64,000 nt of DNA, from positions 1,088,001 through 1,152,000 of the forward strand of contig OY970280.1 in assembly GCA_963715865.1 (NCBI GenBank). The letters run 5' to 3'. Shown piece after piece: positions 2,553-55,408 of this stretch (its first letter is position 1; each line of letters begins with the position of its first letter). The notes beneath the pieces were generated by a model. That model was not told where the DNA came from and searched no databases. It saw only the letters and a list, made by a program, of their open reading frames with translations. The stretch is from Candidatus Bathyarchaeota archaeon (GTDB lineage Archaea > Thermoproteota > Bathyarchaeia > Bathyarchaeales > Bathycorpusculaceae). A program made the position numbers and the translations under genes.

Positions 2553-4295
2553 TTGGATGAAAGTTCAGAGTTACTCAGACGGCAACTATTCACTTCTAAC
2601 TCCGCAGACAATAGCGTGCAACCGATAGTAATTCTTAAAAGGCTACGAAACACTCTCTTACTCTATTCGCGAGGAAGAGAGAGATTGGCCTCAGGTTCAG
2701 GCATCAAAATAGTTCTTACAGCGTCAGCTACAGAAATGAGCGACTTTTATAATAATCCTTTTATCGCTTTTGTCGCAGGTTTCGGCAAAGGCCCGATTCC
2801 GCTTGGATTCGTCAGAAAAACACTCTATCCTCCGGTGGAACGCAAGCCTGATGGCAGAGCAAGATTTGCACCTTACGGCTTAAGAAAAGTAGAAGCTATG
2901 CTGCTAGAAAGTGGCTTCACAGAAAAAGAAGTAGCCGTAGTTCACCCCGAAGACCTTGAAGACTTCATAGGACCAGAAACCAAGGTTATAGGCATATCTT
3001 CAATGGACCCAACAGGCATGGGTTACGTAAGCAAAACTTACTCCTCAATCATTGGCGGAGGAGAACCCATGAATGCAGTTGAATTCCAAAAACTCGTCAC
3101 TAACCCGAGCATCAAAAAGTTTAAGCCAAAAATTATTGTTGGCGGATTTGGTTCTTGGCAGCTAGAACGCAAAAAAGTATCAGACAGCTATGACGTTGAT
3201 TGCGTGCTCCTCGGCGGAAGACCAGAACCAATCGTTGAAGTTTTTAAGAAAGCAGTCAATGGCGAAGCTCTTCCGCGTATTGTTAAAGCTGACGAATCAA
3301 TCAGCAACTGGGATTATAATGCCATAATGCCCTTAACTAAACACTCTGCAATTCATGGCGCCGTGGAAATTTCAAAAGGCTGCGGAAGAAACTGCCAGTT
3401 TTGCACGCCTACCATGCAACATAAAGTTGATGTGCCACTGGAAAAAATAATGCAGGAAGTCGCTTTAACAACGGCAGACGGATGCGACCACATAACCTTA
3501 GTCACCGAAGACCTATTCCTGTACGGTTCCAAAGACAAAAAATTTATTCCAAACAAGGAAGCCGTTGTAAAACTAGTAAAAAGAGTTGCTAAGTATCCAG
3601 GCGTTAAAAGTATTCAAGCATCCCACATGTCTTTAGCGCCAGCAGTTCATAATCCGCAAATGGTAAAGGAACTTGCAGAAATTTTGATTGAGCGCAGTTG
3701 GTACTCGTTTGGCAAAAAAGCAATAATCACCGCTGAAACAGGAATTGAAACTGGCAGCACAAGGTTGATGAAGAAGTACATGTCGGGTAAAATGTTGCCT
3801 TTTAAGCCTGAACAATGGCAGGAAGTTGTCGCCAACGCGTTTGGCATACTTAACGATAATGATTGGTATCCTCTGGCGACGTTGATTGTAGGTCTTCCAG
3901 ACGAGAAAGAAGAAGACGTACAGCAAACGCTTGAGTTAATGGATAAATTAAAAGATTATAACGCATTTTATGTGCCGCTGTTCTTTGTTCCACTAGAGAA
4001 TTGTGTGCTAATGAATAAGAAAGGCGCTGAAATTGATTCGCTCTCACAAGTACGCTGGGACTTTTTCATTAAATGCTGGGAATATAACATTAAAATTTGG
4101 AAGCCAACTTTTCTTGAAAACCGCGTACCTAATCCAATCCTGTATAAGGCATTGGACCATATAGTTATCCCGTATTTCGGTAGAATAGCTGGTTTCTATT
4201 ACGGTTGGACACGCGGTGAACAGTTAAAACAAGCCTTCTGGACGCTAAGTATGTCTCAGCCAACAACAGTTAAGAATAAGCAAAAGTTAAGTTGA
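2553..4295 (+). CDS. B12-binding-domain radical SAM protein
   Basis: CxxxCxxC (GCGRNCQFC), APYGLRKVEA N-terminal block, GIETGS motif; paralog of 39202..40665. Confidence 0.85.
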   Translation: MDESSELLRRQLFTSNSADNSVQPIVILKRLRNTLLLYSRGRERLASGSGIKIVLTASATEMSDFYNNPFIAFVAGFGKGPIPLGFVRKTLYPPVERKPDGRARFAPYGLRKVEAMLLESGFTEKEVAVVHPEDLEDFIGPETKVIGISSMDPTGMGYVSKTYSSIIGGGEPMNAVEFQKLVTNPSIKKFKPKIIVGGFGSWQLERKKVSDSYDVDCVLLGGRPEPIVEVFKKAVNGEALPRIVKADESISNWDYNAIMPLTKHSAIHGAVEISKGCGRNCQFCTPTMQHKVDVPLEKIMQEVALTTADGCDHITLVTEDLFLYGSKDKKFIPNKEAVVKLVKRVAKYPGVKSIQASHMSLAPAVHNPQMVKELAEILIERSWYSFGKKAIITAETGIETGSTRLMKKYMSGKMLPFKPEQWQEVVANAFGILNDNDWYPLATLIVGLPDEKEEDVQQTLELMDKLKDYNAFYVPLFFVPLENCVLMNKKGAEIDSLSQVRWDFFIKCWEYNIKIWKPTFLENRVPNPILYKALDHIVIPYFGRIAGFYYGWTRGEQLKQAFWTLSMSQPTTVKNKQKLS

Positions 4296-20156: not shown

Positions 20157-20180
20157 ATAAAATTTAGGAGAAAAAGAAAA

Positions 20181-22865
20181 ATGCAAATTACAAAAAGTAA
20201 AACTGCAGCTATTGCTATTGCTATATTCTTAATGCTTTCGATGTCAGCTTCAATGATGCTTGTACCAAATGCTAGTGCACATACACCTGCATGGCAGATT
20301 CCAACATATGCCTACATACAAGGTTTGCCTAACCCGGTCGGTGTCGGTCAGTCAGTGCACATTCTCATGTGGCTTGACAAGGTAATAGATGGAGCAGAAC
20401 CAACCAATGACATTCGGTTCCAGAACTACAAGCTCACCATTACTGCACCTGACGGCACAATAACAACACAAACTTTTCCTGTTTGCACAGACCCAACATC
20501 AAGTCAGGGCTATACCTATACTCCTACCCAAGCCGGCACATACAATCTCACCTTTACTTTCCCAGGACAAGTGTACACATACACCGAACCAGTCATGAGC
20601 TTCTTCGGTCCTCCCGCGCCAAGTCAATTCATAAACGATACTTATGAGGCCAGCTCTGCGTCAGCAACACTTACTGTTCAGCAAGCACCAGTAGGCATAT
20701 ATCCAACTACTCCGCTTCCGACGGCGTACTGGACGCGCCCAATATACGGTGAGAACTGGAACTGGTATACGGTTTCGTCAAACTGGCTAGGTGCAGGTGT
20801 ACCAGGCTTCGCGAGTGGTTTCCCAGGTGATGCTGTAGGTCCTCTCACTGGCCATGTCATGTGGACAAAGCCGCTTGATATGGGAGGAGTTGTCGGAGGA
20901 AACGAAACTGTTATTCAGGGAGACACATACGCCGAGGGATCTGCATACGCTACTAGATACAGCAACCCAATAATAATAGACGGGTACCTATACTACACGG
21001 AACCAATATCACTTGCGGGTACCCCAGGAATGTTCGGGGGTACGGGTTATGGACCAACCGTCTGCGTTAACCTGCAAACAGGACAACTTATTTGGTCTCG
21101 GACTGATGTACCTGCGCTATCCTTCGGTTATATCTATGACGTTCAAGACCCTAACCAGCACGGAGTTTATCCGCCAATTCTAGTTGCAAGCATTGGAGGA
21201 TCCTTCCTTGGACCTCCAGTACCGACGACATGGGAAGCTTTTGATGCATACACAGGAAACTTTCTGTTCAACGTAACCAACGTTCCCTCGGGCACAACTG
21301 TACTCGGTCCGAATGGTGAACACTTGATAATTAGCCTGACAAATGATGGACCAATGACAATGACACCTTTTGGCCCTGTTCCTAGCGGTCCACCGCAGTA
21401 TTATTTGAGTGAATGGAACTCCTCTAGACTGTGGGATAATCAATACTCAGGGCCGTCAACAACACCAAGCGTAGTTCCACCCATTACTGACGGAAACGAT
21501 CCAAGCTTATATGACTGGAACATTTCGATACCATCGCTCAACACTATGACCTCACCACCTACTATAGAAGCAGCTTTCAGTGGTAATATGTTGCTTTGCA
21601 TGAGCGGCTCTTACCCTGCTGGTCCTAGTACTTTATTCAGTGCAGCAAGCAGTGCTCCCTACACGTACTTCACTGTCAATCTCGACCCAAGTAAAGGTGC
21701 GATCGGTTCAGTACCATGGACAAATACAGTTAGCGCACCAGCAGGCAACATAACTGTCGAATTTGTCGGAGCCGATCCAACGGCTGGTGTCTTCGTTGAA
21801 TACCATGCGGAAACTTTGCAATGGGTAGGATACAGCCTGACAACAGGCAAGCAAATTTGGGGTCCAACCGGCAATCAAACAGCCCTTGACTTCTACTGGA
21901 TGGGCTGGTCTAGCATGGCCGGGCATATAGCTTACGGGAACCTCTACAGTTGCAATGGTATGGGAGGAATAATCTACTGTTATAATTTGAAAACTGGAAA
22001 CCTAGAGTGGACCTACGGTAACGGCGGCGCAGGCAACAGTACTAACAGCGGTTTACCGTGGCCTGGTCCATATCCAACTATCATATACGCTATTGCCAAC
22101 GGAGTAATATACACGATTACTAATGAGCACACTTTCGAAACACCGATTTTCAAGGGTGCATTGTCACGCGCTATTAATGCTACAACCGGGCAAGAAATCT
22201 GGACTGTTTCAGCTGCCTCAGCCTCTTCCGGATCAACTGCTATCGCAGACGGCTATGCAACATGGTTCAACGGCTATGACAACCAAATCTACGTTGTTGG
22301 CAGAGGACCCAGCGATACCACAGTACAGGCACCACTGACTCAAATTACAGCAGGCAACAAAGTAGTTATACAGGGCACAGTGATGGATATTTCTGCGGGC
22401 ACAAAGCAAACTCAGCAGGCAGCAGACTTTCCAAATGGTGTTCCAGTTGCATCTGATGCAAGCATGAATGATTGGATGGGCTTCGTTTACCAGCAACAAC
22501 CATGCCCAACCAATTTCACAGGCGTTACAGTATCAATAGACGCTATTGATCCGAACAGTAATCTCATCCACATCGGCGACGCCACAAGCAATGCAAACGG
22601 CTTATTCTACTACACTTGGACGACTCCAAACATCCCAGGGGACTACCTCGTCACCGCAACATTCGCTGGCACCAACAGTTACTGGCCGTCAAACGCACAA
22701 ACCGCCATGACCGTACAAGAAGCACCATCAGTAGCACCGACCGCTACACCTCAATCAAACCTAGCAACCACAGCAGACCTAATGACGTACATAGCCGTTG
22801 CCGCAATCGCTATAATCATTGCAATAGCCATAGCCACAGTCCTCATGCTCAGGAAACACGCGTAA
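20181..22865 (+). CDS. Cell-surface PQQ-like beta-propeller protein (paralog 1)
   Basis: Signal peptide, N-terminal Ig-like region (PNPVGVGQ), YWTRPI and WTKP motifs, repeated D..TG...W, C-terminal Ig-like domain, Pro/Thr linker, TM anchor and RKHA tail; ATG at 20181 after AGGAG. Confidence 0.88.
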   Translation: MQITKSKTAAIAIAIFLMLSMSASMMLVPNASAHTPAWQIPTYAYIQGLPNPVGVGQSVHILMWLDKVIDGAEPTNDIRFQNYKLTITAPDGTITTQTFPVCTDPTSSQGYTYTPTQAGTYNLTFTFPGQVYTYTEPVMSFFGPPAPSQFINDTYEASSASATLTVQQAPVGIYPTTPLPTAYWTRPIYGENWNWYTVSSNWLGAGVPGFASGFPGDAVGPLTGHVMWTKPLDMGGVVGGNETVIQGDTYAEGSAYATRYSNPIIIDGYLYYTEPISLAGTPGMFGGTGYGPTVCVNLQTGQLIWSRTDVPALSFGYIYDVQDPNQHGVYPPILVASIGGSFLGPPVPTTWEAFDAYTGNFLFNVTNVPSGTTVLGPNGEHLIISLTNDGPMTMTPFGPVPSGPPQYYLSEWNSSRLWDNQYSGPSTTPSVVPPITDGNDPSLYDWNISIPSLNTMTSPPTIEAAFSGNMLLCMSGSYPAGPSTLFSAASSAPYTYFTVNLDPSKGAIGSVPWTNTVSAPAGNITVEFVGADPTAGVFVEYHAETLQWVGYSLTTGKQIWGPTGNQTALDFYWMGWSSMAGHIAYGNLYSCNGMGGIIYCYNLKTGNLEWTYGNGGAGNSTNSGLPWPGPYPTIIYAIANGVIYTITNEHTFETPIFKGALSRAINATTGQEIWTVSAASASSGSTAIADGYATWFNGYDNQIYVVGRGPSDTTVQAPLTQITAGNKVVIQGTVMDISAGTKQTQQAADFPNGVPVASDASMNDWMGFVYQQQPCPTNFTGVTVSIDAIDPNSNLIHIGDATSNANGLFYYTWTTPNIPGDYLVTATFAGTNSYWPSNAQTAMTVQEAPSVAPTATPQSNLATTADLMTYIAVAAIAIIIAIAIATVLMLRKHA

Positions 22866-23144
22866 GAACAGCACAACCAAAAAATCCACTTTCCCCTTTT
22901 TTAGTCTCTAGAAAGCAATGGAGAAGAGATAAGGGCTGAGAAGGCTCTAGTAAAATTTACCATACAATCGTGATTAGCATTTGCATTCTTTTCTCCTAAA
23001 GAGTGTTCCAGAGCCTCAGCAAACCTCACTAAAAAGTCAATTATGTAAATAGATTTTCACTTTCACTTACCTCTCTACTGCTTAGCTGAGTCGTTTGTTC
23101 ACTTTCCTTTTAAGCAATCTGAACCATAAGCACGAGCCCCAAGT
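22866..23144. repeat. Conserved 3' element, copy A (T-rich terminator plus structured region)
   Basis: Near-identical to 34780-35062; partial copy at 27739-27931. Confidence 0.92.
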
Positions 23145-25047: not shown

Positions 25048-27738
25048 ATGAAATTTGCAAAAAACAAAACTACAACTATTGTGATCGCTCTATTCTTAAT
25101 GTTTTCAATCGGAGTTTCAATGATGCTAGTGCCAACTGCTAACGCGCACACGCCGCCATGGCAAATTCCAACCATGGCCTTTCTCAATGTGGCACCTAAC
25201 CCTATAGGTGTCGGTCAAACACTTACCGTTAACTTCTGGCTCCAGATGCCACCACCCACAGCAGGCATTACGTATGGCGATAGATGGGAGAATATAACAG
25301 TGAAAGTTACACTGCCTGATGGAACTACTACAACACTGGGACCTTTTGCATCCGATGACACAGGAGGAACATTTACCACATACACGCCCACTCAACTTGG
25401 CAACTACACTTTCCAGATGAGTTTTCCAGGACAAACATTAGCAGGCAACAATCCTCCGCCGGCAGGCTTCGGTGTCGCAGCACCGTTTGTTGGCGATTAT
25501 TTTGGGCCTTCTGTTAGCAACACAGTAAAGGTTACAGTGCAACAGGAGCCCATGCCCTCTATTCCGCTAAATCCGCTTCCGACAAGCTACTGGACACGCC
25601 CAATAAGCGCTGAGAACAACAATTGGTACTCGATAGCCGGGAACTGGCTTGGGATGGGAGGATCCTACAACGCCAGTGGCAATTATAATCCATGGAGCAC
25701 AGCGCCAACCACCGCCCATATCCTATGGACAAAGCCTATTGCATTCGGAGGCACAGTCGGAGGAGAATTCGGCGGAAGCCTAACAAGCAACTTCTACACA
25801 AACAGGCAGTATGAAACACCGTATGAACCGATAATTATGAACGGCATCCTCTACTACACTGAATACCCCACTGGAGGATCAGCCTACATGGGATACCCCG
25901 CTAATAATCAAGGTTGGGCTGCCGTAAACTTGCAGACGGGACAAACAATTTGGACTGACGATTCCGCCAACTACGGTGGTGGTTCTCCAGAGCAGACTGC
26001 TCTAATATCAAGTGGCATATGTACGTATTTAGCTTGCGGTCAACTACTCAATTTTGTATCACCTAACCAGTACGGATGCCAAGCATTCTTATGGAGCACC
26101 GGAACCCCGGATGGAATCAATGCGGTCGCTGGGTCAACTACATGGAACATGTTTGACGCCTTTGATGGAAAGTATTTGCTGAGCATTGTTAACGGTACTG
26201 GACTGACGCTTACGGAAGATCAAAATGGAGACTTGATAGGCTACTACATTAACTTCGCTGATAACACGCTGAATATGTGGAACTCGACATGGTGCATCCA
26301 GAACTACGATAACATAACTGGAATGACAACCGGAATCAGCCAGTATACTAATCCTTGGATGTGGAGGCCTATTCAAGGTTCTCAAATTCCGTTTTCAGAT
26401 GGAATAGAATGGTCAGAACCAATAGCTACTAACTATTCAGGTAATGCTTTGCCAGGGACTCTCTGGCCTGGCGCTATTAATAGCGGTGTAATAATCATGA
26501 GCGCAAATAACGGTGCTAACGGTGGAGGCTCAGGTGGAATGGCAGGTGGAGGCATTTTCCAATCTGGATATCAAATTGAAGCAGGCTACAGTGCAGACAC
26601 GGGTGCACAACTATGGATAACTAACCGAACTGAAACACCGTACACATCGCTTGCTGGTCCTAGCTCATTTCTAGATGGATGTGGAGTCTACGTTGTAGTG
26701 AACCAAAACACGCTTACAGCAACTGGTTACAGTATTTATACAGGCGCGGAGCTGTGGACAAAAGTACTTCCCAATGCTAATACTTATGATACCTATATGA
26801 TTAGTGGAATGGTTGCTAATGGCACACTTTACATGTATGCGCTTGGAGGAGACGTGTATGCTATGAACATACAGACAGGAGCTATCTTGTGGCACTATAC
26901 TACTGGAAGCGCCGAGTATAATACTCCCTATGGTGTATGGCCAATTTGGGCGTGGAATTATCCGTCGTCAGAGGCTATTGCTGGCGGAGTGCTATTCATC
27001 AACGAGGGTCATGAGTATAGTCCACCACTATTCCGTGGCGCTCAAGTAGTAGCCTTGAACCTCACTGATGGGCAACCGATATGGAACGATCTTGGATTTT
27101 ACGTTAGTGGTGGTCCAGCTATTTCAGACGGTGTCTTGGTAATGCTCAATTCCTATGACAATCAGCTATACAGCTATGGCATGGGACCCAGCAAAACAAC
27201 GGTTACAGCACCTAGCGTTGGCGTGACAACTTCCACACCAGTAACGATAACGGGCACAGTAACTGACATCTCTGCCGGCTCACAACAAGAAGCACCAGCA
27301 GCGAACTTCCCAAATGGTCTTCCATGCGTTTCTGACGCAAGCATGACTCAATGGATGGACTACGTTTACCAGCAGCAGTCAATGCCAACCAACGCAACCG
27401 GAGTTCCAGTTACCATAAGCGTCGTTGACTCTAACGGCAACTACAGAACTATCGGCACCGCCACAAGCAATGTCTATGGGACCTACAGTTTAACTTGGAC
27501 ACCTGACATTCCAGGCAACTACACTGTCATCGCCAGCTTCGCAGGTTCAGGATCATACTATGGATCGTCCGCTACAACAGCCTTCTATGCTAGCGCTGCA
27601 CCCGCAACACCATCTCCATATCCAGTTACAGTGTTGCCTCCTACTGAAATGTACATTGGCGTAGCAGCAGTCGCAATAATAGTTGTAATAATCATCGGCT
27701 TTGCTTTACTCTTCTTAACGCTTAGAAAACGCCCATAA
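25048..27738 (+). CDS. Cell-surface PQQ-like beta-propeller protein (paralog 2)
   Basis: Same architecture as paralog 1; RKRP tail. Confidence 0.88.
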   Translation: MKFAKNKTTTIVIALFLMFSIGVSMMLVPTANAHTPPWQIPTMAFLNVAPNPIGVGQTLTVNFWLQMPPPTAGITYGDRWENITVKVTLPDGTTTTLGPFASDDTGGTFTTYTPTQLGNYTFQMSFPGQTLAGNNPPPAGFGVAAPFVGDYFGPSVSNTVKVTVQQEPMPSIPLNPLPTSYWTRPISAENNNWYSIAGNWLGMGGSYNASGNYNPWSTAPTTAHILWTKPIAFGGTVGGEFGGSLTSNFYTNRQYETPYEPIIMNGILYYTEYPTGGSAYMGYPANNQGWAAVNLQTGQTIWTDDSANYGGGSPEQTALISSGICTYLACGQLLNFVSPNQYGCQAFLWSTGTPDGINAVAGSTTWNMFDAFDGKYLLSIVNGTGLTLTEDQNGDLIGYYINFADNTLNMWNSTWCIQNYDNITGMTTGISQYTNPWMWRPIQGSQIPFSDGIEWSEPIATNYSGNALPGTLWPGAINSGVIIMSANNGANGGGSGGMAGGGIFQSGYQIEAGYSADTGAQLWITNRTETPYTSLAGPSSFLDGCGVYVVVNQNTLTATGYSIYTGAELWTKVLPNANTYDTYMISGMVANGTLYMYALGGDVYAMNIQTGAILWHYTTGSAEYNTPYGVWPIWAWNYPSSEAIAGGVLFINEGHEYSPPLFRGAQVVALNLTDGQPIWNDLGFYVSGGPAISDGVLVMLNSYDNQLYSYGMGPSKTTVTAPSVGVTTSTPVTITGTVTDISAGSQQEAPAANFPNGLPCVSDASMTQWMDYVYQQQSMPTNATGVPVTISVVDSNGNYRTIGTATSNVYGTYSLTWTPDIPGNYTVIASFAGSGSYYGSSATTAFYASAAPATPSPYPVTVLPPTEMYIGVAAVAIIVVIIIGFALLFLTLRKRP

Positions 27739-27931
27739 AAACTGCAAAAGCAAAAATCCACTTTCCCCTTTTTTAGTCTTAAAAAGCAATGGAGAAGAGT
27801 TAGGGGCTGAGAAGGCTCTGGTTAAAATTCACGATGTTAGTCATAGCAATCGTGATTACGCATTTGCATTTACGTTCTTTTCTCCTAAAGAATGTTCAAG
27901 TTCCCAGAGCCTCAGCAAACCCTTACTAAAA
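27739..27931. repeat. Conserved 3' element, copy B (diverged, shorter)
   Basis: Paired segments are retained and insertions fall in the loops. Confidence 0.88.
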
Positions 27932-32154: not shown

Positions 32155-32184
32155 TGCAAAATAAAAATTAGAAGGAAAAGAAAA

Positions 32185-34779
32185 ATGCAAAATAAGAAAA
32201 CTCTGATTGCTTTGATTTTAGTGGTAATTCTAACAACTCCAATGATGATGCAATTAGGCCAAGTATTTGCTCAAACGACATTGAATGTCCCAGACTATCT
32301 ATATGTCAATGCATCACCTAATCCCGTAGGCGTCGGCCAAACCGTATACGTTAGCCTCTTCTTCTCTAAACCTATACCCATAATCAACGGTACCAGTTTC
32401 TTCTTGGCGGCAACCCAGTACATAGGTTTAAAAATTAACATTGTCAAGCCAGATGGAACTAATGAGACTCTCGGACCATATACATCTGATACAACAGGCG
32501 GTGTAGGTGCAGTAGAATTCGTGCCCGCTGCGGTCGGGAACTATACCTTCCAAGGTATATTTCCTGGACAATCATTAGGGACGGACCCTACTGGTACGAC
32601 CTATAATATGGACCCAGCTATTAGCCCTGCAGTTAAACTAGTTGTGCAGCAGGAACCGGTAACGACATATTCTAGTCCTCCGCTTCCAACAGAATACTGG
32701 ACACGCCCATTATACGCATCAAACTATGGATGGCCGCAAACGATTGGTGGAAACTGGTATGGCTTAGGAAGACCCGGATTCGACAATACTGGCGGATATG
32801 ATGGTTCTGGAAACAACTTCCAACCATACAGCACTGCACCAACTACTGCTCACGTACTTTGGACTAAACTGACAACAACAGGGGGTCAACCTGGCGGGGA
32901 AACTCCCGCTAACGAAATGAGCGCTTACACGGCATCTTCCCCACTATACCACTTCTTTGAACCGATAATTCTCAACGGAATACTATACTACAATTGGTAC
33001 GCAGCTCAAACCGATGTGGCTGGCATTGCTGCAGTGAATCTCCGCACAGGACAAACACTGTGGGTTCAGAATACTACTGACATATTAATTTACGGTCAAG
33101 TGATAACATACCACACAGTTGAGGAATTCGGCTCTCAAGCATTTCTATGGACATCGCATTTAGCCGGCTATGGCGCTCCCGGGATGTTTGGCCCCACTGC
33201 CCTCTACGATTATAACATACTGGATCCAGTGACTGGAAATCAGATGGCCACCGTAACCGATATTCCTAGCAGTATAGCTAATCTCTTCGGAACATCACCA
33301 AATGCACTTATAGATTCGAATGAAAGCAACTGCGCAGGATCAATACTAATCTGCTATGTCGACTACAGCAATAATCTCGTAATGTGGAACTCATCCCTAT
33401 GTCTTGCTGGTCCAATGGCAAGCGGTGGATTAGCAGAAATTTTCACAGGTAATTTTAAGCCAACAGGCTCCTACAACTTTACACAGGGCATAGAATGGTC
33501 AGTACCGCTTCCAACTGCAAATCCAGCATTTGGCATCGCTAAAGAAACTAACCAAGCAATACTCTTGAGTTCACACCCAGCTGTCCTTTCGACGTTTGCC
33601 AACCAGTTTGGCGCTTCTTACGCTACAGATGTAGCGTACAATCCTATTACGGGAGCATTATTATGGGGACCAAAAAACCAGACGTTGACGAATTTTGATG
33701 ACATAGGAATAGTAGCTGCAGGCGACGGCGTATACGTGAGACATGACAAAGACACAAATCAAGTATATGGTTATTCAATGACAACTGGTCAGCAACTCTG
33801 GGGACCAACTCAACTTGTAGGAAACGCTTTGAGTACTATCTATAGTGATGCTGCTATCGCTTACGGTCGATGCTACATCTGGGACATGGGTGGTTACGCG
33901 AACGCTGTTGATCTTGCAACCGGAAAACTTGACTGGACCTTCACCCGCGGATCCGCCGGATATAACACACCATACGGTATATATCCTAACTGGGTCTTCG
34001 GTGTGGGAACCCTTGCTGACGGCATGCTATTCCTTTCTGAAGGTCGTTGCTATGATCCACCGCTGTTTCCAGGCGGAGAGAAACTTGCGATAAACTGCAC
34101 TGATGGCTCGCTTGTCTGGGAAATAAGCGGCGCTTTCCAGAGATCTCCATCTCCTGTTGCGGACAGCGAAATGCTTGGATGGAACGGTTATGACGGTCAA
34201 ATATACGCCTTCGGCACTGGACCAACCAAAACTACTGTCACCGCACCTGACGTTGGCGTAACAACCGCAACACCAGTGACGATAACGGGCACAGTAACGG
34301 ATATCTCTGCTGGCGCATCGCAAGAAGCAGTTGCAGCGAACTTCCCCAACGGGTTGCCTTGCGTATCTGACGCTAGCATGACTCCGTTTATGGAAGCCGT
34401 TTACGAGCAGCAACCAATGCCGACCAACGATACGGGAATCCCAGTGACAGTAGCTGTTACGGACTCTAACGGCAACTGTTACGACATAGGCACTGTCACA
34501 ACCAGCCCAACCGGCACCTTCGGCCTAACATGGACACCTATTATCTCAGGCAACTTTACAGTTACTGCAACTTTCGCGGGCACACAATCATACTATGGAT
34601 CTTCAGCTACAGCATACTTCTATGCCAGCGCAGTAGCACCAACAGCTGCACCAACCGCTACACCTCAATCAAACCTTGCAACCACAGCAGACCTAATGAC
34701 GTACATGGTCGCTGTAGCAATCGCTATAATCATTGCAATAGCCATAGTCGGATTCCTCATACTCAGGAAACACCCATAA
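32185..34779 (+). CDS. Cell-surface PQQ-like beta-propeller protein (paralog 3)
   Basis: Same architecture as paralog 1; RKHP tail. Confidence 0.88.
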   Translation: MQNKKTLIALILVVILTTPMMMQLGQVFAQTTLNVPDYLYVNASPNPVGVGQTVYVSLFFSKPIPIINGTSFFLAATQYIGLKINIVKPDGTNETLGPYTSDTTGGVGAVEFVPAAVGNYTFQGIFPGQSLGTDPTGTTYNMDPAISPAVKLVVQQEPVTTYSSPPLPTEYWTRPLYASNYGWPQTIGGNWYGLGRPGFDNTGGYDGSGNNFQPYSTAPTTAHVLWTKLTTTGGQPGGETPANEMSAYTASSPLYHFFEPIILNGILYYNWYAAQTDVAGIAAVNLRTGQTLWVQNTTDILIYGQVITYHTVEEFGSQAFLWTSHLAGYGAPGMFGPTALYDYNILDPVTGNQMATVTDIPSSIANLFGTSPNALIDSNESNCAGSILICYVDYSNNLVMWNSSLCLAGPMASGGLAEIFTGNFKPTGSYNFTQGIEWSVPLPTANPAFGIAKETNQAILLSSHPAVLSTFANQFGASYATDVAYNPITGALLWGPKNQTLTNFDDIGIVAAGDGVYVRHDKDTNQVYGYSMTTGQQLWGPTQLVGNALSTIYSDAAIAYGRCYIWDMGGYANAVDLATGKLDWTFTRGSAGYNTPYGIYPNWVFGVGTLADGMLFLSEGRCYDPPLFPGGEKLAINCTDGSLVWEISGAFQRSPSPVADSEMLGWNGYDGQIYAFGTGPTKTTVTAPDVGVTTATPVTITGTVTDISAGASQEAVAANFPNGLPCVSDASMTPFMEAVYEQQPMPTNDTGIPVTVAVTDSNGNCYDIGTVTTSPTGTFGLTWTPIISGNFTVTATFAGTQSYYGSSATAYFYASAVAPTAAPTATPQSNLATTADLMTYMVAVAIAIIIAIAIVGFLILRKHP

Positions 34780-35062
34780 AAACAGCACAACCAAAAAATT
34801 CACTTTCCCCTTTTTTAGTCTCAAAAAGCAATGGAGAAAAGATACAGGGCTGAGAAGGCTCTGGTAAAATTTACCATACAATCGTGATTAGCATTTGCAT
34901 TCTTTTCTTCTCCTTAAAGAGTGTTCCAGAGCCCCAGCAAACCCCACGTAAAAGTCAATTATGTAACTAGATTTTCACTTTCACTTACCTCTCTACTGCT
35001 TAGCTGAGTCGTTTGTTCACTTTCCTTTTAAGCAATCTGAGCCATATGCATGAGCCCCAAGT
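34780..35062. repeat. Conserved 3' element, copy C
   Basis: Near-identical to copy A. Confidence 0.92.
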
Positions 35063-39056: not shown

Positions 39057-39133
39057 TGGCGCCGCCGAAAGGATTCGAACCTTTGACCGACTGGTTAACA
39101 GCCAGCCGCTCTACCGGGCTGAGCCACGGCGGC
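39057..39133 (-). tRNA. tRNA-Asn(GTT), CCA encoded, no intron
   Basis: Acceptor GCCGCCG/CGGCGGC, anticodon loop CTGTTAA, T-loop GGTTCGAATCC. Confidence 0.97.
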
Positions 39134-50916: not shown

Positions 50917-51195
50917 CTCCGTGCATAAACTTTCCCTTTTTTCTTTCTTTTTTATGCTTACTACGATTAAGAAGGCTTTTAGTTTTATGGTGAATGCTGA
51001 CCGGGTTAAGAAGAAAATCCCTTCTCTGCTTGTGAATGGTGACACGTCTAAGCGGAAAAACTATAATGCGTTCTTTCGGGAGCGTTATCGGCTTCAACAA
51101 CTTAAGAAGCGTCGAACCGTTTTAAAATTTGAAGTTAACTTGTTGATATTTGAAACAAAAGAAAAGGGGAAATTTGGTTTTTCCCTTGTGTGGGT

Positions 51196-54045
51196 TTATG
51201 GTCGTCTTCGCAACGTTAGCATAAGTACTGCGCCGATTATGATGATTACGATTATTATCGCGACTGCTGAAGCTAAGACATACGTGTCAGTCATTGATGC
51301 TTGTGGTGCGGCTGTTGGCGTGGGAGTGGCGGCAGGTGATGAAACAGCAAATGCAGTCTCTGAGTATGATGGCCAGTAACCGTTAGTGCCAGCGAAAGTT
51401 GCGACAACAGTGAAATTGCCTGGAATGTCAGGTGTCCATGTGAGGCTGAAGGTGCCCGTTGCGTCAGTTGTTGCAGTGCCAATGTTCCTGTAGTTGCCAT
51501 TAGAGTCAAGAACATCTATTGCCACTTGAACACCAGTGAAGTTTGTTGGAAGTGGTTGCTGTTGGTAGACATAGCCCATCCACGCAGCCATGCTTGCATC
51601 AGATGAGACTGGAACGCCGTTTGAAAAGTCGGCTGCTTGCTGGGTTTGCATTGTTCCAGCAGATTTGTCCATCACTGTACCGCGTATTACCACGTTCTGT
51701 CCGGAGGCTAAACCTGAGTTAGGCGCTGTAACGGTTGTTGCACTTGGTCCTCTACCTACAGTGTAGATTTGTCCATCGTAACCGTTAAACCAAGTGTTGA
51801 ATCCGTCTGCGATGGCATAGCTCATTGAAGTGAATTCGCTGGTATAATCTGAAATTGTCCAGATTTCTGCACCTGTTGTGGCATTGATGGCTCGTGCTAA
51901 TGAGCCTTTGTAGATTGGGTCGATTACAGTGTGCTCAGTTGTAACCAAGTAGATCACACCATTGGCGCCAACTGCCTGTATGAATGTCGGGTAATCGCCG
52001 TAGGGTGTGTTAAATCCTGCGAGAGTGCTGTTGCCAGATCCGCCGTTACCGTATGTCCATTCTAGCTGTCCAGTTGAATCATTGTAGCAATATACCGTTC
52101 CGCCGAATGCGCTGGTGTATAGGTTACCAAAGGCGAGTTGACCGCAGAACTCGTTTGGCGCTGTTTGTCCATAGTAGTCAAGCGACTCCATAGCTGGAGT
52201 TGGACCCCATATCTTTTGTCCTGTTAACAGGCTGTATCCAATCCAATTCAGGGTTTCATAGTTTTCTTCTATGAAGACATTTGTTGTTGGGTCGACTCCC
52301 GCGTAGTAGACTGTGACGTTGCCTGCTACTGGTTGCAGTGTGTTTATCCATTTGAATGAACCGATTTGGCCTGCGGATGGGTTTAGGTTGAATGCCATGT
52401 AGGTGTAAGGTGTATAGCTGCCTGGTCCAGTAAAGCTTCCTGGTGATGCTGGTAGAGATCCGTTCAAGGTAAGCAAAACGTTGTTGTACATTCCTGCAAT
52501 TACTGAGGGTGTTGGTCCGCCTGGGTTGTTTAGTTGAGGTACTGTAACGTTCCAGTCATATGTGCATTCTGATGGGTACTGAATAGAGTTCAAAAGTGTA
52601 CCTGCTACAGTGGTGTTAAATCCTACGTTTGCTTGGACAATGAGCGTATTTTGAACGGCTGCTTGATTGGAAGCTGGGAATATTGTTGTAAGTGCATTTG
52701 CGTTGCTTTGATTGATGATTGCTGGTGAAACACTTCCTGCGCCTGTGAATGGGTTAATGTCGTATTGCCAGATTCGTGATGAATTCCATTCTGCCAAGTA
52801 CCAGTTTGGATTTGCAGTTGTACCTTTGTTCTGTAAGACGTATCGTAGTTGTTCGCCTGATGGGCCCGCTGCAACATAGCCTGTTGGAACACCAGTCACG
52901 TTAAACAGTACGGTTCCAGTGAATCCATCGACCATTTCCCATAATGCTCCGTTCGGGCAAATTAGTATTGGTGGGAAGGTTCCGTGTTCGTCTGGACTCC
53001 AGAGGTTGTATATGTAGCCGAATGATGGCGCTGGTAATGTATTGCTGGTCCAAACAACTTGTCCACTTTGCAGATTAAGGGCAACTAGTGGTCCATAGCT
53101 TGGAGCATCGAATCCTAATGGTGCCATGTAGTAGAGTATGCCGTCCATTATTATCGGGTTTACGTATCGTTGCTCGTATGCAGTGCCTTCGTAGTAGCCG
53201 ACACCTTGACCTGTTCCTGGATATCCACCGCCAGCATAGTACGCGTTGCCTCCGACGACTCCGCCACTTTGAATCGGCTTAGTCCACATTACGTGGCTAG
53301 TCAAGGATCCTATGGCGTCACCTGGATTTCGACTCATGATTGCGCCCCACATGCTCATTGGGGGGCCTGTAGAGAAAGCAGAGACCGCGCCTGAACCTAC
53401 TGCGGGGTTAACCGCTGAGCCTGCGCCCAGCCAGTTTGAGGATATAGTCCACCAGTCACTGTTTTCACCGTAGATTGGACGTGTCCAGTAAGCGGTCGGC
53501 AATGGAGAGCTGCCTACAGCAGCTGGAATTGGTGTTTGCTGCACAGTAACTGTTGTTGACGCAGAGCTGGGCATATAGGTGTCGTTGACCAATATACTGT
53601 TTGGATTACCGTTGCTTGCTGTGTATGTTTGTCCTGGGAAGCTGAATATCAGTGTGTATGTTCCGACTTTGTCGGGGGTGAATGATGTTAGCTGGTTTGA
53701 AGTGGTGTCTTGAACTGTGTCGAAAATTTTTGTTGTAACGTTGCCGTCTGGGGCTACGATGGTGAAGTTGTAGTTGTGGAATCTGTAGTTGTTGGATAAT
53801 AGTGCATAGCTGTTTGATTCACCCAAGCCTACTCCGAAGATTTGGTTGAGCCACATGAAAACGTTAACTGTCTGGCCGACACCGACTGGGTCCGGATGAA
53901 CGGAAATGTAAGCAAATGTTGGAATTTGGTATCCTGGAGCGGGGTGTGCGCTAACTTGTGGTATAAGAATTGTAGAAGCTGACATTGAAAGCATTAAGAA
54001 TATAGCAATCGCAATAGCTGTTGTTTTATTTTTAGTCATATGCAT
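51196..54045 (-). CDS. Cell-surface PQQ-like beta-propeller protein (paralog 4)
   Basis: Same architecture as paralog 1; RRRP tail. Confidence 0.88.
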   Translation of the reverse strand: MHMTKNKTTAIAIAIFLMLSMSASTILIPQVSAHPAPGYQIPTFAYISVHPDPVGVGQTVNVFMWLNQIFGVGLGESNSYALLSNNYRFHNYNFTIVAPDGNVTTKIFDTVQDTTSNQLTSFTPDKVGTYTLIFSFPGQTYTASNGNPNSILVNDTYMPSSASTTVTVQQTPIPAAVGSSPLPTAYWTRPIYGENSDWWTISSNWLGAGSAVNPAVGSGAVSAFSTGPPMSMWGAIMSRNPGDAIGSLTSHVMWTKPIQSGGVVGGNAYYAGGGYPGTGQGVGYYEGTAYEQRYVNPIIMDGILYYMAPLGFDAPSYGPLVALNLQSGQVVWTSNTLPAPSFGYIYNLWSPDEHGTFPPILICPNGALWEMVDGFTGTVLFNVTGVPTGYVAAGPSGEQLRYVLQNKGTTANPNWYLAEWNSSRIWQYDINPFTGAGSVSPAIINQSNANALTTIFPASNQAAVQNTLIVQANVGFNTTVAGTLLNSIQYPSECTYDWNVTVPQLNNPGGPTPSVIAGMYNNVLLTLNGSLPASPGSFTGPGSYTPYTYMAFNLNPSAGQIGSFKWINTLQPVAGNVTVYYAGVDPTTNVFIEENYETLNWIGYSLLTGQKIWGPTPAMESLDYYGQTAPNEFCGQLAFGNLYTSAFGGTVYCYNDSTGQLEWTYGNGGSGNSTLAGFNTPYGDYPTFIQAVGANGVIYLVTTEHTVIDPIYKGSLARAINATTGAEIWTISDYTSEFTSMSYAIADGFNTWFNGYDGQIYTVGRGPSATTVTAPNSGLASGQNVVIRGTVMDKSAGTMQTQQAADFSNGVPVSSDASMAAWMGYVYQQQPLPTNFTGVQVAIDVLDSNGNYRNIGTATTDATGTFSLTWTPDIPGNFTVVATFAGTNGYWPSYSETAFAVSSPAATPTPTAAPQASMTDTYVLASAVAIIIVIIIIGAVLMLTLRRRP

Positions 54046-55329: not shown

Positions 55330-55361
55330 TTTTCAATTTCCTCCTCAATGTTTTACTTGCT

Positions 55362-55408
55362 TACGGTTCAGCCTTTCGGCCACATCCCAACGGACATGAT
55401 TGTCCGCC
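55362..55408 (-). promoter_or_regulatory. Candidate eL15 ribosomal-protein leader RNA
   Basis: Hairpin CGGACA/TGTCCG followed by GGGATGTGGCC-GAAA-GGCTGAACC, just upstream of the rpl15e RBS. Confidence 0.55.

Follow-up and report, generated by a model that had tools for sequence, protein, structure and literature searches.

The window, a stretch of 64,000 nucleotides from a Candidatus Bathyarchaeota archaeon (contig OY970280.1; archaeal genome of 2.35 Mb, 43% GC), contains three co-directional paralogous genes at 20181-22865, 25048-27738 and 32185-34779, each with a conserved element on its 3' side. Within the element behind paralog 1 lies a 22-nt tract that is antisense to the ribosome-binding site (RBS) and start codon of that same gene. 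The question raised by the locus is what kind of molecule the element encodes, if any, and on which start sites, if any, its tract acts.

The gene family and its 3' element

The products of paralogs 1-3 (864-896 amino acids) each contain a signal peptide, a PQQ-like beta-propeller, an Ig-like domain and a C-terminal membrane anchor. Fourteen full copies of the element were found in the genome, 13 of them directly behind a family gene and 62-74 nt past its stop codon. With a covariance model the element was located in 30 of 121 genomes from the order, mainly in two taxonomic families (13/25 and 15/25 genomes); individual genomes hold as many as 24 copies. The module follows many genes of this ~900-amino-acid beta-propeller surface-protein family in one order of Bathyarchaeia. 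A scan with Rfam 15, using gathering and E-value thresholds, gave no match to the element (best E 0.6-0.8, far below threshold), and the matches within the window were a tRNA and an eL15 leader only; the element is an uncatalogued RNA, absent from Rfam. The positions of the features discussed are collected in Table 1.

The tRNA is tRNA-Asn(GTT) at 39057-39133 (minus strand). The other match, to the eL15-Euryarchaeota ribosomal-protein leader, was obtained at 55360-55406 (minus strand) with 43.5 bits, despite the assignment of the genome to the Bathyarchaeia. The 3' flank of paralog 4 (50950-51200) contains just a GGGAAA/TTTCCC hairpin and a T-run beyond the stop codon.

Between the stop codon and the element lies a run of six T, near-invariant in 13 of the 14 genome copies and kept at the equivalent place by family members that carry no element. 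The T6 run is probably the terminator of paralog 1. Oligo-T generally terminates transcription in archaea, and the terminator role rests on this general rule, since T-runs are only weakly enriched past stop codons genome-wide (34%, vs 32% for A-runs). T6 should stop much of the transcription of the gene, and synthesis of the element would need read-through of T6 or a downstream promoter.

Read on the plus strand, the ends of the element consist of GG, GCUG, a 3-nt bulge and a 9-nt strand, then 60-90 nt of interior, the complementary 9-nt strand, CAGC, AAA and CC. The interior is variable and forms one or two hairpins; it always holds a tract of the form U-rich / CAU / U-rich / C(U/A)CC. A conserved module of ~110 nt was seen further downstream in copies A and C and one other (23026-23144, 34944-35062 and G000 570 kb), and other copies share a different downstream module ending in a T7 run. 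A lone copy with both element ends lies outside the window at G000:C1:626840-626952, without a T-run, segment a or an upstream family gene.

Table 1. Positions of the features discussed, in window coordinates except for contig L219
Feature	Position	Strand	Remarks
Paralog 1 translation start region	20163..20188	+	SD, A-rich spacer, ATG at 20181; proposed target type
Paralog 2 start	25048
Paralog 3 start	32185
Paralog 4	51196-54045	minus	949 aa; leader resembles that of paralog 1; without BHB element
T6 run, copy A	22897..22902	+	preceded by C-tract; 32 nt past paralog 1 stop
T6 run, copy B	27769-27774
T6 run, copy C	34811-34816
Segment a (GGAGAAGAGA)	22920..22929	+	purine tract immediately 5' of BHB; outside predicted excised RNA
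BHB 5' half, copy A	22933..22950	+	h 22933-34; H 22935-38 (GCUG); B1 22939-41 (AGA); h' 22942-50
BHB 3' half, copy A	23008..23025	+	h' 23008-16; H 23017-20 (CAGC); B2 23021-23 (AAA); h 23024-25
Predicted excised RNA, copy A	22941..23022	+	82 nt; contains the 22-mer; cut after second nucleotide of each bulge
Anti-start-site tract (22-mer)	22979..23000	+	UUUGCAU, U-rich tract, CUCC, UAAA
Local hairpin P4	22983..23006	+	stem 22983-91 with 22998-23006; hexaloop UCUCCU 22992-97 is the anti-SD
Copy B, after paralog 2	27804..27921	+	BHB 27804-21 and 27904-21; anti-SD CUCC 27882-85
Predicted excised RNA, copy B	27812-27918	+	107 nt
Copy C, after paralog 3	34847..34943	+	BHB 34847-64 and 34926-43; anti-SD 34910-13 with CTT insertion
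Predicted excised RNA, copy C	34855-34940	+	86 nt
Contig L219, tandem region	3046-3240		first 105-nt unit 3055-3159; second copy runs to contig end

A bulge-helix-bulge motif on the plus strand

The preliminary description had drawn a long-range stem, b/b', around the antisense tract. What had been missed is that this stem has the form of a splicing-endonuclease substrate. On the plus strand b/b' is a canonical hBHBh' motif, with a 4-bp central helix (H), two 3-nt bulges on opposite strands, an inner helix (h') and an outer helix (h). The central helix GCUG/CAGC, with four standard pairs, is invariant in all 44 copies first counted and in all of an independent set of 35 further copies from other genera (79/79). 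Bulge B1 is AGA, with the variants AGU, AAA and AAU, and bulge B2 is AAA.

Polarity was judged against the tRNA-Arg(CCG) intron of the same genome, whose motif has H CUCC/GGAG and bulges GG|A and UU|A, with the cut after the second bulge base. The element has the same arrangement and fits it on the plus strand only: both bulges lie directly 3' of their central-helix strand, and on the minus strand they would lie 5', which is non-canonical. Folding energies do not distinguish the strands significantly (-30.1 for plus vs -29.1 for minus, p = 0.15).

The inner helix carries the covariation. In the 44-copy set its cells include 17 G.U pairs on the plus strand and 4 compensatory changes. In the 35-copy set its nine pairs were formed in 94.6% of cases, with compensatory changes in 8 of the 9; double-change cells numbered 48, vs 13.1 +/- 3.0 in shuffles, and none of 500 shuffles reached this value. 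In 8 copies the pair adjacent to B1 is G-C instead of A-U, and this switch fixes the register as 3-4-3. The outer helix consists of two near-invariant G-C pairs in the genus of the window, with a third pair in 27 of 44 copies; in a second genus (g16) it extends to 10-14 covarying base pairs and is followed by a T-run. The plus strand is thus marked as the RNA strand by BHB polarity, covariation and wobble pairs, in agreement with the strand taken originally, and we consider it highly probable that the element is a real structured plus-strand RNA with a BHB motif.

The enzymes for such a motif are encoded. EndA is matched twice by PF01974, in open frames of 203 and 188 amino acids, and RtcB is matched once by PF01139. 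The EndA genes lie at G000 742977-743219 and 1187424-1187678. A two-subunit EndA is the broad-specificity type of the TACK superphylum (PMC7714728). The BHB reading accounts for the invariance of CAGCAAACC, which would otherwise be hard to understand. The total conservation of sequence in the central helix and bulges nevertheless exceeds the requirements of EndA in tRNAs and hints at a further recognition besides that by EndA.

A different kind of selection would act if the element worked as DNA, as a recombination or gene-conversion anchor for the 3' ends of family genes or as inverted repeats for gene inversion. Its constant distance from the stop codon would suit such a role. The helix-preserving compensatory changes, the substitutions that tolerate G.U and the RNA-specific polarity of the motif point instead to selection on RNA. 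The leader and element also make poor inverted repeats for most genes, and the element is conserved more strongly than the adjoining coding DNA. A DNA-level function is accordingly rated as highly improbable, the least credible of the readings weighed here.

Several further arrangements were noted among the copies. In g16 (L103-L125), the T-run that follows the stop codon, 20-60 nt upstream of the element, lies in the loop of a hairpin formed by a C-tract and a GGGAG-tract, with compensatory variants CUUCCC/GGGAAG. In the same genus the purine tract adjacent to the BHB forms a long outer helix with the 3' flank, after which a second T-run follows. Pairs of complete elements in tandem, 25-45 nt apart and each with its own BHB, stand behind one family gene in relatives, at L118, L123, L125 and L127 (G096, G074, G062 and G082). 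With ARAGORN, introns were called in 12 of the 44 tRNA genes of the whole genome, several at non-canonical positions; two of the 'introns' are very long (2043 and 1229 nt) and may represent insertions or erroneous calls. A hairpin in the 5' leader of paralog 1 (…AGCAAACC…) resembles the 3' half of the BHB over 9 nt alone and is missing from other leaders; it was put down to chance. The readings as K-turn, C/D-box sRNA, MITE, DGR, whole-gene inverton and permuted or split tRNA were each rejected from the sequence, since either a defining motif was missing or most copies did not fit.

The antisense tract and its proposed target sites

The interior of the predicted excised segment contains the tract that had first drawn attention. 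At exactly the coordinates originally reported, nucleotides 22979-23000 are the reverse complement of the start region of paralog 1, from its SD through spacer and ATG to the following CAAAT, except that the leader has four additional A. Pairing of the 22-mer with the paralog 1 start region was calculated at -21.5 kcal/mol with RNAduplex, and that of a 34-nt tract at -26.9 kcal/mol. The corresponding stretch of copy C (34894-34911) pairs with the paralog 3 leader (32170-32191) with bulges, at -18.4, and the match of copy B to paralog 2 is weak (-12.3), both as described before.

The 22-mer was scored against the 1910 predicted start regions of the genome. The paralog 1 site ranked 6th; rank 1 was held by another member of the family, and several further top-ranked sites belong to family members that lack the element. 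Besides paralog 4, at least three such members lie elsewhere in the genome, with start sites among the top 22-mer matches. For 12 family start sites the mean energy was -15.65 kcal/mol, compared with -10.64 kcal/mol for 300 other SD-bearing sites (Mann-Whitney p = 2e-4), and none of 100 composition-preserving shuffles of the 22-mer reached this difference between family and background. Since the shuffles fail to reproduce the family preference, the preference is not merely one of pyrimidines for purines. Pairing no better than with unrelated genes, which would have spoken against the original proposal, was thus not observed. Five of the 12 family start sites in the genome are mediocre targets, with ranks of 232-1069 of 1910.

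GGAG and GGTG are both common SDs in this genome. Starts of the form ATGCAAA occur at 24 of 1910 genes (1.3%), and this rarity makes the match a family-level one and not a generic property of RBSs. The tract is a non-random antisense image of the translation start regions of the surface genes.

The earlier proposal went further and made the tract specific for the RBS of the element's own gene. Cognate and non-cognate pairings were compared in three sets. In a 12 x 12 matrix within this genome the cognate mean was -16.8 and the non-cognate mean -17.4 (permutation p = 0.77). Across 32 pairs from several genomes the means were -14.9 for cognate pairs, -16.8 for non-cognate pairs of the same genome and -15.3 for pairs from other genomes. 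For 11 pairs of g16, RNAduplex gave no cognate advantage (-16.9 vs -16.3). The leader belonging to the thirteenth copy (E13) reaches about -30 with almost all elements, but -12.5 with its own. Within this matrix of pairings, the CTT insertion that had been read as compensation between copies A and C is a single favourable pair among many. The tract is therefore antisense to the start sites of the gene family as a whole, and not to those of the element's own gene; this conclusion is supported.

Between genera the picture differs. In g16 the family start regions are of the type GGUG-A6-AUG-A6, and the elements read U6-CAU-U6-CACC; the start-region type has changed from GGAG...AUGCAAA to GGUG...AUGAAAAAA and the element has changed in step. 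Elements of the own genus were the better partners for 25 of 31 leaders of the window's genus, g1 (-16.05 vs -13.11, p = 4e-4), and for 9 of 11 leaders of g16 (-16.30 vs -12.30, p = 0.04). In a third genus (g18), CCAU elements accompany starts of the AUGG type, and SD-spacer strings are nearly identical. In G040, a complete genome, a 19-mer from the antisense of an element has five exact matches: two lie in intact elements, two in decayed copies and one in a family gene's start region. Between element antisense and start region the identity extends to 22 nt, and the gene lies elsewhere in the genome. The co-variation of element and leader that had been sought across loci was thus found between genera, but neither between an element and its own gene nor between genomes of one genus. 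Decayed copies at L150 and L151 (G040:C1:1455500-1456200 and 1970100-1970800) are partial, with a degenerate BHB 3' half and no 5' half, and keep the anti-start-site tract perfectly.

Such likeness could also arise if the minus strand simply bore a genuine start site, RBS plus start codon, that serves a very short ORF or antisense transcript, in which case good start sites would look alike. This alternative had been raised at the outset. An SD-like GGAG or GGTG stands 4-9 nt before the minus-strand ATG in ~85% of copies, and does so in every genus examined, and the A-run before the C-tract is a minus-strand T-run in 10 of 13 copies. The peptides encoded would however range from 4 to over 50 amino acids, with the invariant b segment read in three frames or not reached, so that neither ORF nor frame is conserved. 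The minus-strand ATG is ACG in 6 of 45 copies, and GTG or TTG is found at that position in none; in the six copies the change of CAU to CGU abolishes the ATG and keeps plus-strand pairing through G.U. The BHB is canonical on the plus strand only, and the likeness includes features peculiar to the family, such as the ATGCAAA starts and the 22-nt identity in G040. The minus-strand explanation is weak, and we judge it improbable. Plus-strand mini-ORFs in segment a and in g16 elements were compared by eye and are not conserved.

The tract may alternatively serve the element's own fold or the binding of a protein, such as an Sm-like one on the U-tracts, with complementarity to leaders as a by-product. 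In the folds of the window copies the UCUCCU hexaloop is open, and CAU and the U-tract are paired as one strand of P4, with a downstream A-rich/UG segment as the other. Local folding is more stable than that of flank shuffles (mean -3.1 vs -1.4 kcal/mol, p = 8e-5). In g16 a long hairpin has an internal A-rich strand containing AUG, which would alone conserve CAU, and the CGU variants preserve the internal pairs too. Against this, the loop CUCC/CACC is conserved though predicted to be unpaired: CUCC has a mean unpaired probability of 0.81, rising to 1.0 in circular folds of the three window copies. It lies in the loop of a local hairpin in ~21 of 44 copies, and the tract persists though P4 is missing in about half of the copies. 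Neither the failure of composition shuffles to give the family preference nor the parallel change of SD type and post-AUG bases with the family leaders across genera would be expected of a by-product. Service to the fold or to a protein alone is considered doubtful, though less so than a minus-strand start site. Most of the 22-mer being paired in P4 in the window copies, full pairing with a target would cost ~8 kcal/mol.

Predicted excision and proposed function

Predicted cleavage also bears on how the tract could reach a start site. In the preliminary description the element was a translational switch acting in cis, from 3' to 5', or in trans, with segment a as an SD mimic able to sequester the anti-RBS (segment a'). 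Pairing of a with a' is possible at -14.9 kcal/mol, with a few compensatory cases in the genus of the window, but a/a' showed no cognate signal and is not conserved in g16, where the purine tracts equivalent to segment a have other partners, namely the C-tract upstream of the T-run and, in the outer helix h, the 3' flank. Sequestration of the anti-RBS by segment a is not supported.

In its full form the cis switch would have each 3' element fold onto the RBS and AUG of its own gene, with segment a competing, to turn single genes on or off. Paralog 1 does pair strongly with its own element (the -26.9 given above), the cognate energies of A and C sum to -45.3, vs -34.9 when swapped, and a few strong cognate matches occur in other genera (e.g. 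L142 and L159). L219, described below, suggests that gene and element can share one transcript. These cases are set against the absence of a cognate advantage in 12, 32 or 11 pairs, the poor pairing of E13 with its own leader and the behaviour of a/a'. As b/b' is a splicing-endonuclease motif, the 22-mer would lie in the excised RNA and segment a outside it; cleavage would detach the tract from the mRNA and likewise from segment a, which makes a simple 3'-5' loop unlikely as the main mode. We hold a gene-specific cis switch to be very unlikely. Of the translational switch as first proposed, the own-RBS mode in cis is not borne out, and a trans-acting regulator is reasonable, given a non-random image of start regions that changes with them and lies on the plus strand.

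Contig L219 of a JGI assembly (Ga0265604_100698) bears on excision. It contains, in order, a gene for a 944-amino-acid family member, a T7 run, the BHB 5' half, a 105-nt unit and an identical second unit. The join between the units coincides precisely with the predicted cut sites, the pattern expected of a circular RNA; the all-A bulges fix the sum of the retained bases and not each individual cut. The contig, number 698 of its assembly, measures 3.2 kb and covers one gene, which has a leader of 156 nt and lacks a TATA box; so small a size at this number would be in keeping with an assembly of transcripts, provided that JGI contig numbers follow decreasing length. If JGI sample 3300029674 is RNA-derived, L219 shows both read-through of the T-run and circularisation. 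Judged by its sequence, it looks like an assembled circular-RNA junction plus read-through.

The junction scan of contigs in public metagenome collections yielded mostly chance 16-mer matches, with the informative L219 among the matches listed. In the genome-assembly collection a 19-mer junction had three matches, all by chance and in unrelated bacteria; no Bathyarchaeia genome assembly among those searched contains it. Genomic 'pre-spliced' loci were sought by their exon-exon junction, which gave just chance 10-mers in coding DNA. On balance, we think it probable that the segment is actually excised or circularised, a step below our confidence in the structured RNA itself.

The reading we favour is that of a BHB-excised, probably circular RNA directed against the start sites of the family, from which we infer regulation of translation as the most economical function; as a whole it is held with middling confidence. 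The element region would be transcribed by read-through of the gene's T-run or from a start of its own. EndA would cut both bulges and RtcB would ligate the product, giving a stable, probably circular small RNA of ~100 nt. The open anti-SD loop could then seed pairing with the start regions of family mRNAs, and pairing could spread across the spacer and AUG by opening P4. Translation of the paralogs would be lowered, or otherwise tuned, family-wide and not just for the gene upstream. That the module acts by pairing with family start sites is, in our estimate, evenly balanced between yes and no.

Known EndA substrates with a BHB in archaea are tRNA introns, 16S/23S stems, the cbf5 pre-mRNA intron and the 46-nt intron in the 5' UTR of Haloferax HVO_1309, the only other UTR intron known; the paper that describes it also defines the BHB motif, and BHB processing acts on tRNAs, rRNAs and very few mRNAs (PMC7714728). 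Excised introns and pre-rRNAs yield ligated circles (PMC7714728, PMC12558985). The element resembles these substrates in its 4-bp helix, two 3-nt bulges, flanking helices and tRNA-intron polarity, in the presence of the enzymes and in the circle expected. It differs in lying outside any tRNA, rRNA or coding frame, with no obvious need for exon joining, in being multi-copy (up to 24 per genome) and tied to the 3' flank of one gene family, and in having a sequence-invariant central helix and bulges that enclose a start-site antisense; its cleavage is here a prediction.

Antisense to an SD is known from 3' UTRs. Staphylococcus aureus icaR carries a UCCCC anti-SD motif in its 3' UTR that pairs with the mRNA's own SD (PMC3868564), and hbs of B. 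subtilis has an interaction between its 5' and 3' UTRs (PMC5737220). These systems share with the element a C/U-rich anti-SD downstream of the coding region that is complementary to an RBS, and they come closest to the cis idea. Unlike these bacterial examples, which act in cis within one transcript, the tract of the element is split from the mRNA by the T-run and BHB, and its complementarity is at the level of the family. RBS-masking small RNAs are known from few cases in archaea, among them the trans-acting sRNA41 and loop 2 of sRNA154 of Methanosarcina mazei (PMC5867862). As in those RNAs, the anti-RBS lies in the loop of a structured small RNA, and repression of initiation on several mRNAs is proposed. 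The M. mazei RNAs are single-copy, intergenic and without BHB, whereas the element has many sibling copies behind genes of the presumed target family, and its match continues across the start codon and into the codons just after it.

The module would thus unite BHB processing with RBS masking in a widespread, multi-copy form, and its release would depend on the tRNA-splicing enzymes. For annotation, a conserved "intergenic repeat" is explained, and a covariance model is available to find the element. We also entertain, as a rather unlikely extension, a cross-repression network in which read-through of each paralog releases a stable circular RNA whose open loop is antisense to the RBSs of its siblings, so that the 13-24 copies per genome choose which surface proteins are made, or how many. 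Such a network, if true, would parallel mutually exclusive surface-antigen expression at the level of RNA, with the tRNA-splicing machinery as its driver. Should the element be regulatory, it would be a natural circular antisense regulator and a new class of EndA substrate, and would offer a testable mechanism for the coordination of large surface-protein families in uncultured Bathyarchaeia.
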